The translations under genes were made by a program, and so were the position numbers. Positions 44,352-45,907 of a DNA stretch of 64,000 bases are shown one piece after another. The stretch is taken from contig CAVSEV010000012.1 in assembly GCA_963727015.1 (NCBI GenBank), positions 214,131-278,130 on the forward strand. Direction: 5' to 3'. Within the stretch, counting starts at the first letter, position 1. Every line of letters begins with the position of its first letter. Below the pieces are notes generated by a model, which saw only the letters and a list, made by a program, of their open reading frames with translations, was not told the DNA's origin and did no database searches. The DNA comes from an uncultured Actinomycetota bacterium (GTDB taxonomy: Bacteria > Actinomycetota > Actinomycetes > Streptosporangiales > Streptosporangiaceae).

Positions 44352-45907
44352 GGAGCTATTCCAGAACGGCTGCCGCTAGCTGGCGCCACGACTGCAGGAC
44401 CCGCGCCTGCAGGTGAGGATTGGTCGCCCTGGCCGGATTCGGTTGCCGCGGCAGCGCCAGCGGACGACCCCTGCCTGGACCGCCTTGGCCCCGCCCCGCC
44501 GTTCGAGGACGGCAGGCCGTCGATCAGGTGGCCAAGCCTGTCCCGCTTGGCGACCAGGTAACGCAGGTTGTCCGTGGTAGCGACGGCAGGCAGCGGCACG
44601 CGGCCGATGACGTCGATGCCGAACCCCGACAGGCCGCTCACCTTCGCCGGGTTGTTGGTGAGCAGCCGGATCGACCGCACGCCGAGGTCGCCCAGGATCT
44701 GCGCGCCCGTGCTGTACTCGCGCGCGTCGGCGGGCAGGCCAAGCTCCAGGTTGGCGTCGACCGTGTCGGCGCCCCCGTCCTGCAACTGGTAGGCCTGCAG
44801 CTTGCTGAGCAGGCCTATGCCACGGCCCTCGTGGCCGCGCAGGTAGAGCACGACGCCGCGGCCCTCGGCCGCGATCGCCGCCATTGCCGCGTCAAGCTGC
44901 ACACCGCAGTCGCAGCGCTGCGATCCGAAGACGTCGCCGGTGAGGCACTCAGAATGCGCGCGGACGAGCACGTCCGCGCCGTCGCCGAGGTCGCCGAGCA
45001 CCAGCGCGACCTGCTCCGTGCCGTCCACCGAGTTCAGGTACCCGAACGCGCGCCATAGGCCGCGCGAGTTAGGCAGCTTCGTTTCCACGATCCTGCGGAC
45101 CATCTGCTCGGTGTGCCTGCGGAAAGCGATGAGCTGGGCTATGGAGATCAGGACCAGACCGTGGGTGTCGGCGAACTCGCGCAGCTGCGGCAGGCGCGCC
45201 ATAGTCCCGTCGTCGTTGAAGATCTCGGCCACCACACCTGCCGGGGTCAGGCCGGCCAGCCTGACCAGGTCGACGGCGGCCTCGGTATGCCCGGGCCTGC
45301 GCAGCACGCCTCCGTCGGCGTAACGCAGCGGGAAGATGTGGCCGGGGCGGACGATCTCGTAGGGCTCGGTAGCGGAGTCCACCAGGGTGCGGATGGTCTT
45401 CGCCCGGTCCGCGGCGGAGATACCTGTGGTGATGCCGTGCCGCGCATCCACGCTGATGGCGAACGCTGTCCCCATGTGCTCCTGGTTATCGCTGGTCATT
45501 GGCGGCAGCTGCAGCCGATCCAGATCCGCGCCGAGCATGGGCACGCAAATCAGGCCGCGCACGTGACGGATCGTGAATGCGAGCAGTTCCGGTGTCGCCT
45601 TGCCCGCTGCGAACACGATGTCGCCCTCGTTCTCGCGGCTGGCGTCGTCCACCACAACCACTGGGCGCCCGGCCGCGATGTCAGCGATGGCCCGCGCCAC
45701 GTCATCGAGCGGTGTGTTGCCCACAGCGGCGACCACGCTGCGGCCGCCCGGCGGACCAGGAACCCCGCCCGGCGGACCAGGAACCCCGCCCGGCGGACCA
45801 GGAACCCCGCCCGGCGGACCAGGAACCCCGCCCGGCGGACCAGGAACCCCGCCCGGCGGACCAGGGACCCCGCTCGGCGGACTGGGGACTGTGTCTTCTG
45901 TGCTCAT
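44348..45907 (-). CDS. ribBA: Bifunctional DHBP synthase / GTP cyclohydrolase II with an N-terminal (GVPGPPG)x7 repeat extension
   Basis: Core from ...[28 protein letters not shown] (RibB) through the RibA C-half. The annotated ATG overlaps the ribE stop. Residues 10-58 are seven GVPGPPG heptads encoded by 21-nt tandem repeats. Confidence 0.9.

Follow-up and report, generated by a model that had tools for sequence, protein, structure and literature searches.

The 64-kb window analysed here, the whole stretch from position 214,131 to 278,130 of contig CAVSEV010000012.1 (GenBank assembly GCA_963727015.1), belongs to an uncultured actinomycetal bacterium of the Streptosporangiaceae. It has a GC content of 70% and an actinobacterial gene order, with aroC-aroK-aroB-aroQ, efp-nusB, ribE-ribBA-ribH behind a flavin mononucleotide (FMN) riboswitch, def-fmt-rsmB-rpe, priA and metK-coaBC. 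Arrays of short tandem repeats occur both inside genes of this window, including genes for conserved enzymes, and between them. Pfam supports the gene names of the array-bearing enzymes: dihydroxybutanone phosphate (DHBP) synthase plus GTP cyclohydrolase II (ribBA), RsmB, shikimate kinase (aroK), CheB, a MobA-like nucleoside triphosphate transferase adjoining XdhC, and the DFP/CoaB domain (coaBC).

Tandem Repeats Finder (TRF), run on the window, returned 136 rows that collapse to 44 non-overlapping arrays at a score of at least 50 and to 27 at a score of at least 100. The arrays make up about 5–6% of the bases, and their units range from 13 to 60 nt, 15 or 18 nt being the commonest. As a control for chance, the window was shuffled 20 times in codon blocks so that local codon content was kept. 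No TRF row with a score of at least 100 was found in the 20 shuffles, compared to 42 in the real sequence, and chance is therefore excluded. The arrays are minisatellites of the variable number tandem repeat (VNTR) kind, with direct copies arranged head to tail, units of at least ~10 nt and an abundance well above chance. A search of the window against Rfam matched the FMN riboswitch only, and no RNA family overlaps the arrays.

A previous sequence-only reading of the window had listed arrays in seven genes (ribBA, coaBC, rsmB, aroK, a MocA-like gene, here MobA-like, a CheB-like gene and the gene of an 898-amino acid (aa) protein), and TRF recovered all seven where they had been placed. Parts of its description have to be corrected. 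The coaBC unit is 18/36 nt and not 21 nt; the wording "perfect or near-perfect" suits ribBA but not the degenerate MobA-like, cheB and coaBC arrays (67–80% matches); and it counted among essential housekeeping genes three that are not essential, namely rsmB, cheB and the MobA-like gene.

Reading frame of coding and non-coding arrays

Since the high GC content yields many shadow open reading frames (ORFs), we built a curated gene map from Pfam matches, homolog lengths, the gene calls of a sister genome (described below) and a codon-usage model that was trained on confident genes with the arrays masked. According to this map the period is divisible by three in all 19 coding arrays of the window (15, 18, 21, 24, 30, 33, 36, 45 and 60 nt) but in only 5 of the 12 non-coding ones (13, 16, 17, 18 in four arrays, 19, 20, 25, 28 and 30 nt; Fisher p = 0.0003), the latter fraction being compatible with the one third expected without constraint. 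The sequence-only reading had missed that arrays are about three times denser in non-coding than in coding DNA of the window (1.04 versus 0.36 per kb) and that the largest of them lies upstream of a gene, not inside one. A density ratio of about 1:3 is the prediction of a frame-blind process in which only in-frame products survive in genes, and the pattern as a whole suggests that selection is its cause.

In 1.56 Mb of loci from the clade to which the window belongs, 132 arrays were found, 87% of them with periods divisible by three. The fraction was 81 of 87 in ORFs with gene-like codon usage versus 34 of 45 elsewhere (p = 0.006), the latter made up of 33 of 42 in weak ORFs and 1 of 3 outside ORFs. 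The enrichment of such periods within genes, which the sequence-only reading had predicted, was thus found in both data sets. Two other procedures were discarded. A classifier of genic and intergenic arrays based on the GC3 phase of their flanks failed, the flanks often being of low complexity, and was replaced by the ORF and codon-usage test. A Fisher test on genes with Pfam matches alone was uninformative (p = 0.7), as ORFs without a Pfam match had been pooled with intergenic DNA.

The array units have an atypical codon usage. All coding arrays having periods divisible by three, they cannot switch a gene on or off, and hence none of them behaves as a phase-variable contingency locus.

Length variation and density in related genomes

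A RibBA scan of species-representative genomes yielded 80 loci, the closest of which are all from uncultured soil, peat or bog Actinomycetota metagenome-assembled genomes (MAGs) that carry the NCBI label "Streptosporangiaceae bacterium". The sister genome, MFD02416.bin.1.262, is a Nanopore assembly of the MFD project (PMC12313526) with ~95% DNA identity to the window; its loci L161, L163 and L001 provide 56.8 kb that are syntenic with window positions 1–57 kb. Near-identical strains are represented by short-read contigs and proteins of the Joint Genome Institute (JGI), namely L162 (97.9% identity), P0121 and P0246.

When anchored on their flanks, none of the 17 comparable arrays has the same length in the window and in the sister genome, and most of the differences are close to whole numbers of units (Table 1). 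Some are larger in the sister, such as a 13-mer array of ~270 nt that occupies 69 nt in the window. The JGI AroK has one unit more than that of the window (P0121; 221 versus 216 aa), and the JGI CoaBC has two more at its N-terminus (480 versus 470 aa). The arrays are true VNTRs with very fast turnover, in keeping with the earlier suggestion that they could serve as VNTR-like markers. The sister MAG also contains split or frameshifted genes, encoding a CoA-transferase (122+284 aa), a gamma-glutamyltranspeptidase (96+129 aa) and the MobA-like protein (L161 52–1274 and 15515–16167; L001 ~15963–16725). They point to indel errors left over from long reads, or else to real pseudogenes, and frame arguments drawn from that genome need caution.

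The density of arrays was determined with a re-implemented SATFIND-like criterion, and "genome-wide" here refers to the window (~64 kb), the sister stretch (~57 kb) and scattered loci from the clade. By this count, which is maybe ~2-fold more permissive than the published program, the window includes 15 satellites (234/Mb) and the 56.8-kb sister stretch 11 (194/Mb); the window was chosen for its repeat-rich look and the sister stretch, being syntenic, is not independent, hence the density across the genome may be lower. Forty-five clade loci (814 kb) gave 39/Mb and 35 outgroup loci, mostly Nocardioides (581 kb), gave 10/Mb; strong arrays are concentrated in the clade, and the Nocardioides-type outgroups have almost none. 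In a published survey of 119 reference bacteria, in which a satellite had to contain a decamer at least four times at regular intervals, only 18 species had more than 4 satellites/Mb, led by Burkholderia chromosomes with ~22–23/Mb (B. pseudomallei, B. mallei), while M. tuberculosis had ~5/Mb, S. coelicolor 4.2/Mb and other actinobacteria of 70–72% GC ~4–5/Mb (Subirana & Messeguer 2019, PMC6749651). Even with these reservations the load exceeds that of every reference bacterium at least several-fold, and it belongs to the clade and not to high GC as such.

Growth of the ribBA array in place

The ribBA ATG, at position 45907 of the minus strand, overlaps the ribE stop codon (ATGA) and is preceded by GGGAG. 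The array comes after this conserved Shine-Dalgarno (SD) sequence and start codon, and its translation, PSPPSGV followed by five PGPPGGV and one PGPPGGR, makes up residues 10–56 of RibBA. The conserved beginning of DHBP synthase follows. In the alignment with M. tuberculosis RibA2 (4I14; residues 2–409 aligned) the query is matched from residue 65 onward only, and the array therefore lies within a 64-residue N-terminal extension.

The start junction of RibBA, "REPAMS", is kept in the window, in the sister locus L001 and in L002, a relative with a 91%-identical RibBA. In L002 the homologous 21-nt segment (CCT GGT GCG CCG AGC GAC CTG, encoding PGAPSDL) is present in exactly one copy, as compared with seven units in the window, the five internal ones being identical, and eight units in the sister genome, in variant blocks of 4+2+2. 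The array thus grew in place from resident coding sequence, and the differing variant blocks indicate that it was re-amplified independently after the ~95%-identical genomes split. We also considered a collagen-like (Gly-X-Y)n structure for (PGPPGGV)n and rejected it, as a unit of 7 residues disrupts the Gly triplet register wherever one unit meets the next.

Seven PPG motifs follow one another in the RibBA leader, and efp, the gene of elongation factor P (EF-P), is found in the same window (3284–3841, minus strand). PPG is among the strongest EF-P-dependent ribosome-stalling motifs, and the array could make RibBA synthesis EF-P-dependent. The FMN riboswitch (Rfam RF00050, 93 bits; 46625–46755, minus strand) lies directly upstream of ribE-ribBA-ribH. 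Between rpe and ribE there is no ribD (deaminase/reductase), though many actinobacteria have ribD there.

Table 1 Arrays and related features of the window, with the length difference of the sister genome (sister minus window); the 19-, 20-, 25- and 28-nt arrays differ by -1 or -2 units.
Feature	Position	Strand	Repeat	Sister minus window	Basis
ribBA gene (DHBP synthase + GTP cyclohydrolase II), 519 aa	44348..45907	-			Pfam
ribBA N-terminal array	45744..45882	-	21 nt x 6.6 copies, 98% matches	+21 nt	TRF
Single ribBA proto-unit in L002			CCTGGTGCGCCGAGCGACCTG		sequence comparison
aroK 5'-end arrays, two adjacent	8299..8415	-	15 nt; (AESGP)~4 + (ASSDx)~3	+59/60 nt	TRF
MobA-like array	40265..40430	-	degenerate 12/24 nt, 67-71% matches	-126 nt	TRF
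rsmB array	48947..49078	-	15 nt x 8.8, 88% matches	-12 nt	TRF
coaBC internal array, CoaB loop	63322..63402	-	18/36 nt, (DHR/GDSG)-type		TRF, alignment, AlphaFold2
cheB C-terminal tail array	58602..58700	-	18 nt x 5.5, 77% matches, (DNAKNT)n		TRF, Pfam
898-aa protein (gene 13928-16624), arrays filling linker	14537..16275	+	at least 6 arrays; 15, 18, 30, 45, 60 nt	-30, -39, +36, -105 nt	TRF
Secreted Pro-rich protein 1 (gene 10003-10626)	10279..10446	+	9/33 nt, (PKP)n-type		TRF
Secreted Pro-rich protein 2 (gene 11001-11696)	11137..11509	+	18-nt (TPSGS)n, 21-nt (GSGTVPG)n, poly-Pro		
PAS protein repeat	56990-57183		21/42/84 nt; NEELQSTNEELETT heptad-like units, typical of coiled coil		
Largest array, ~370 nt upstream of real SIMPL start	23126..23463	.	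18 nt x 18.8		TRF
Non-coding array cluster	24601..25722	.	23, 30, 18, 13 nt		TRF
Array upstream of aldo/keto reductase gene	34548..34629	.	20 nt x 4.1	-40 nt (2 units)	TRF
19-mer array	37009..37063	.	19 nt x 2.9	one unit fewer	TRF
Intergenic 25-mer array	38961..39027	.	25 nt x 2.7	-23 nt	TRF
Intergenic 16-mer array, 143-300 nt upstream of priA	56307..56466	.	16 nt x 10	-131 nt (~one unit in sister)	TRF
Arrays in 1-kb gap downstream of metK	60806..61251	.	18, 18, 17 nt		TRF
Array at 5' edge of CoA-transferase gene	17952..18024	.	28 nt x 2.6	-27 nt	TRF

Arrays in other enzymes

The aroK arrays were resolved by TRF at 8343–8415 (15 nt x 4.9) and 8299–8347 (15 nt). Typical AroK orthologs are 176–181 aa long, begin with MSDGP and have no N-terminal arrays, while the AroK proteins of the window, P0002 and P0008 each have a different one. 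In P0008 (79% identical) this is (RAVMS)x6, with a start Met within each unit; the start-codon region itself is tandemly duplicated there, giving several in-frame alternative starts. GGAG is found 5 nt upstream of the aroK GTG at 8417 in the window and also in the sister genome. The sister aroK has a 1-nt deletion in the last array unit that puts the array out of frame (L161 10001–10531 and upstream), and the TGA that closes the resulting upstream ORF overlaps with an internal GTG start (GTGCTGA).

The MobA-like array is an in-frame insert of ~50 aa inside the NTP_transf_3 domain, just before AAVVALVDQP. The insert is missing from eight orthologs, and the Pfam match of the domain is interrupted at it; the MobA-like gene of L036 has a different large array at another place. 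The rsmB array forms the repetitive core of an internal insert of ~60 aa, which immediately precedes a conserved C-terminal motif. Of nine more distant RsmB orthologs eight do not have the insert, while L073 carries a low-complexity insert of its own in this loop.

In the alignment with M. smegmatis CoaBC (6TGV), the sequences on either side of the 32-aa CoaBC insert meet at residue 319. Most homologs have no insert in this CoaB loop and close relatives have graded versions of it, while the unrelated CoaBC homologs P0204 and P0227 have different arrays of their own at the same loop. An AlphaFold2 model of the full 470-aa protein had a mean predicted local distance difference test (pLDDT) score of 77 and a predicted template modelling score of 0.72. 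The pLDDT falls below 50 in exactly two segments, both of them arrays: residues 1–29, the (PDNAV)n N-terminal array that lies just outside the window, and residues 352–383, the internal array, which is located in the model between a helix (338–353) and a strand (388–395). A different 18-nt array is present at the rpoZ-coaBC junction of a relative (L165 9852–9908).

On both sides of the RsmB, MobA-like and CoaB arrays the frame continues into conserved domain segments, which in orthologs occur without the insert. Since conserved segments lie downstream of them, these internal arrays must be translated; the terminal arrays of ribBA, aroK and cheB probably are as well, judging by conserved SD and start sites and by ORF calls. 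These in-frame flanks, together with the position of the ribBA array behind its conserved start, bear out the proposal that the repeats add peptide without breaking the gene.

The array residues of nine proteins consist to 95% of P/G/A/S/T/D/E/Q/N/K/R and include 3.9% hydrophobic residues, compared to 25% in the rest of the same proteins. The arrays are found at N-termini (RibBA, AroK), in loops (CoaB, RsmB, MobA-like) or in linkers. The proposed tolerance of the repeats at protein surfaces and termini is consistent with this disorder-promoting composition and with the CoaBC model, whose low-confidence segments are the two arrays alone. A ~60-aa internal degenerate low-complexity insert was also observed in the CarA of a relative (L165 402–1766); another relative (L167 610–1773) has no such insert.

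Arrays in non-enzymatic proteins and in non-coding DNA

In the 898-aa protein, for which at least five arrays had been proposed, at least six were found. Its gene is real: the N-terminal 129 aa and C-terminal ~78 aa are ~62% identical in relatives, with a spacing between them that varies from ~258 to 898 aa, and the middle is therefore a hypervariable repeat linker. The sister ortholog has 844 aa and differs by indels that are multiples of the unit. The gene is preceded by a conserved 161-aa ORF (13439–16624 for both, plus strand), the pair is kept in relatives, and no Pfam match was found for either.

The two secreted Pro-rich proteins are paralogs encoded directly upstream of a sortase gene, with a signal peptide (MYMKTIR...ALA) and a C-terminal anchor made of a transmembrane (TM) segment and RRRR. 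Protein 1 has 207 aa in the window and 221 in the sister; protein 2 has 231 and 253, its 21-nt array being 51 nt longer in the sister. The pair (10003–12379, plus strand) shares the anchor sequence "...LPPGGPATGDG...TM...RRRR" and looks like sortase substrates with a non-canonical sorting motif. Some relatives, L094 among them, have SseB and aroC without this ~2.7-kb Pro-rich/sortase block in between. A minus-strand reading of the arrays at 10–11.8 kb was discarded after translation gave the two plus-strand proteins.

The coiled-coil repeat of the PAS protein is of a different, older class than the other arrays. Its gene belongs to a cheB/cheR/PAS set (56524–59766, minus strand) between metK and priA. 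In L165 integrases and transposases are found downstream of metK instead (12684–18688), which makes this position a variable insertion site. An overlap of ~250 nt between the cheR and PAS ORFs means that either one start is over-called or there is a frameshift.

Among the non-coding arrays, the 18-mer x19 array could be taken for the N-terminus of the SIMPL protein. This was rejected on the basis of codon usage, a frame-breaking 17-nt unit (at 23234, a C-run length change) and homolog lengths (220–232 aa), which locate the array in the upstream non-coding DNA. The sister genome lacks it, and one JGI short-read contig breaks off within it. The cluster at 24601..25722, in which independent gene callers place tiny doubtful ORFs only, shows whole-unit differences in L163 and L162, including -23/+25, -30 and -73 nt. 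The 16-mer array may influence the expression of priA. The PriA ORF itself (54104–56164, minus strand, 686 aa) matches only the 3'-DNA-binding domain in Pfam at E ≤ 1e-4, with no helicase-domain match.

Origin of the arrays

The best unit-to-unit match between arrays is on average 0.587, versus 0.585 for random native segments, and no k-mers are enriched among the units beyond general G/C-run (Pro/Gly-codon) words. A GGACC/GGTCC core common to the units was considered and is not enriched. A dispersed repeat family was likewise rejected, with unit similarity at the null level and no shared k-mer motif; the units are unrelated between arrays, and nothing like a dispersed family of the kind of mycobacterial interspersed repetitive units (MIRU) or repetitive extragenic palindromes (REP) emerges from them. 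The expanded units fold into slightly more stable hairpins than native segments repeated in silico (-0.239 versus -0.214 kcal/mol/nt, p = 0.006), a small effect that gives a weak hint of structure-assisted slippage.

We propose that this lineage has an unusually high rate, or an unusually high retention, of short tandem duplications. A native segment would be duplicated in place by replication slippage or template switching, and the array thus started would expand, contract and homogenise by slipped-strand mispairing or unequal exchange. Duplication would be blind to the reading frame and strike coding and non-coding DNA alike, its products then being filtered by purifying selection. The arrays that persist in genes would be those with a unit divisible by three and a flexible peptide rich in Pro, Gly, Ala, Ser or Thr, situated at termini, inter-domain linkers or surface loops. 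The outcome would be floppy, length-polymorphic appendages on ordinary enzymes, long repeat linkers in non-enzymatic proteins and intergenic arrays free of frame. We consider it likely, with good confidence, that the arrays represent such an extreme, clade-specific minisatellite load of the slippage type, frame-blind in origin and filtered by selection; most of them are probably neutral or slightly deleterious passengers and not functional modules. The sequence-only reading had also postulated a pervasive repeat-generating process. Unrelated units, the in-place origin of the ribBA array, the non-coding arrays and the enrichment in the clade support its slippage version, while the "specific mechanism" that it offered as an alternative is unsupported.

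Several points weigh against this account. Independent arrays recur at the same sites, in the CoaB loop (P0204, P0227), at the AroK N-terminus (P0002, P0008) and in the RsmB loop (L073). The five non-coding arrays with 18- or 30-nt units could mark hidden small genes or a mild intrinsic length preference, and the out-of-frame array of the sister aroK may reflect either a Nanopore sequencing error or a genuine leader ORF, similar to an upstream ORF. That the terminal arrays are translated is a prediction from conserved start codons and SD sites, and the permissive count and the choice of the window bear on the density as stated above. Finally, with ~4–5 satellites/Mb in other actinobacteria of 70–72% GC, slippage of GC-rich DNA alone is insufficient and a lineage-specific factor is needed. 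Such a factor might be a heritable "minisatellite mutator" state, in which a change of the lineage in replication, repair or end-joining seeds 13–30-nt duplications everywhere; we regard this as a tentative extension that is rather less likely to be right than wrong.

The recurrence of arrays at the same sites would also be expected if they were adaptive, that is, programmed hypervariable disordered segments or contingency loci that tune solubility, interactions, translation rate or promoter spacing. The seven EF-P-dependent PPG motifs of RibBA with efp in the window, and the 16-mer x10 array upstream of priA, would fit such a role. However, structural tolerance explains the recurrence equally well, coding arrays with periods divisible by three cannot turn genes on or off, and the ~1:3 ratio of coding to non-coding density fits a neutral frame filter without extra retention. 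Copy number differs at every locus with no conserved length, and the codon usage of the units is atypical, as expected for young unselected sequence. Adaptive tuning is not needed to explain the data, and we judge it unlikely. A dedicated or mobile system that makes or spreads the arrays, such as transposing minisatellites, elements like MIRU or REP, or a diversifier based on a retroelement, could account for a density an order of magnitude above that of known bacteria and for the confinement of the load to one clade, and transposition of satellites is a published proposal for Leptospira interrogans and Methanocella conradii (PMC6749651). For this window it is largely refuted and has a very low probability in our view, as the units are unrelated across arrays and share only G/C-run words, the ribBA array derives from resident coding sequence, and Pfam gave no match to a transposase, reverse transcriptase, nuclease or other repeat-making gene close to the arrays of this window.

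Artefacts of long-read metagenome assembly or sequencing are a concern with a sister MAG assembled from Nanopore reads, as the window contig probably was too, with split genes in that MAG that suggest indel errors, and with a 17-nt unit in the 18-mer array that differs by the length of a C-run. But the same arrays, with diverged units, occupy orthologous sites in these two MAGs from different samples; arrays are also present in independent JGI contigs and proteins (L162, P0121, P0246) and in short-read MAGs of distant relatives; and artefacts are not expected to obey a multiple-of-three rule in coding DNA only. The presence of the same arrays in independent short-read contigs rules out an assembly artefact, an objection that the sequence-only reading had itself raised, and leaves this explanation with a negligible probability. 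Just as improbable is that the repeats are ancient and inherent to the protein families, like coiled coils or collagen-like proteins. The heptad-like units of the PAS protein are of this kind, but the enzyme arrays are missing in orthologs at 80–91% identity, units are 88–98% identical at the DNA level, arrays vary between near-identical genomes, and (PGPPGGV)n does not keep a collagen register. For all arrays except the PAS coiled coil this explanation is refuted.

Slippage of the kind favoured here is not new as a mechanism, and coding VNTRs made by it are well known, though usually rare in bacteria and concentrated in surface proteins. What is unusual is the extreme density, the 15–21-nt scale of the units and their reach into enzymes of riboflavin, CoA, shikimate and rRNA modification. 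The arrays provide very high-resolution strain markers for an uncultured soil lineage. They are also a warning that genes of this clade will be split or given wrong starts in short-read assemblies and by gene callers: one JGI contig stops within an array, and the starts called for genes are not the same in all genomes. As a natural experiment, they show which positions of conserved enzymes tolerate disordered insertions and how frame-blind mutation and selection together shape a proteome. If the cause is a specific change in repair or replication, it may reveal what normally suppresses the formation of minisatellites in bacteria. A mutator state, if real, would mean that new disordered segments arise continuously even in essential enzymes, at ~10 times the density of any reference bacterium, and would make the clade a natural bacterial model for the birth of disordered regions and new coding sequence.

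Comparison with known systems

Low-complexity regions of prokaryotic proteins are gained rapidly by slippage-driven proliferation of short repeats, and housekeeping or essential clusters of orthologous groups (COGs) typically have none (Persi et al. 2023, PMC10120016). In contrast, RibBA, AroK, CoaBC and RsmB, as well as the CarA of a relative, all carry low-complexity inserts. The arrays resemble the prokaryotic "satellites" in being head-to-tail products of replication errors that are mostly unique rather than dispersed, with strain-variable copy number, and in that periods divisible by three predominate, since many encode amino-acid repeats (PMC6749651). They differ in density, which by our more permissive count is ~234/Mb in the window and 194/Mb in the sister versus at most ~23/Mb, and in that core enzymes are hit besides surface proteins. 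The Burkholderia arrays derive from microsatellites of 6–8 nt, whereas units of 15–21 nt are found in the window.

With the MIRU-VNTR loci and PE_PGRS genes of M. tuberculosis the arrays share an actinobacterial, GC-rich background, copy-number polymorphism of use as a strain marker and Gly/Ala-rich coding repeats. MIRUs, however, are a dispersed intergenic family with units of 40–100 bp, while the units in the window have 13–60 nt and are mutually unrelated, and PE_PGRS repeats are limited to one gene family, while many unrelated genes are affected here. The mycobacterial enzymes themselves are free of such additions, M. tuberculosis RibA2 (4I14) having no N-terminal extension and M. smegmatis CoaBC (6TGV) no insert.

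The nearest counterpart in effect is found in the housekeeping proteins of Plasmodium falciparum, which carry lineage-wide, slippage-driven, biased and fast-evolving low-complexity inserts in surface loops and termini. In both cases the composition of the inserts mirrors the base bias of the genome, and otherwise conserved enzymes are affected. Plasmodium is an AT-rich eukaryote with Asn/Lys-rich and mostly degenerate inserts, whereas the organism studied here is a GC-rich bacterium whose inserts are rich in Pro, Gly, Ala and Ser, and many of them are crisp arrays at the DNA level.

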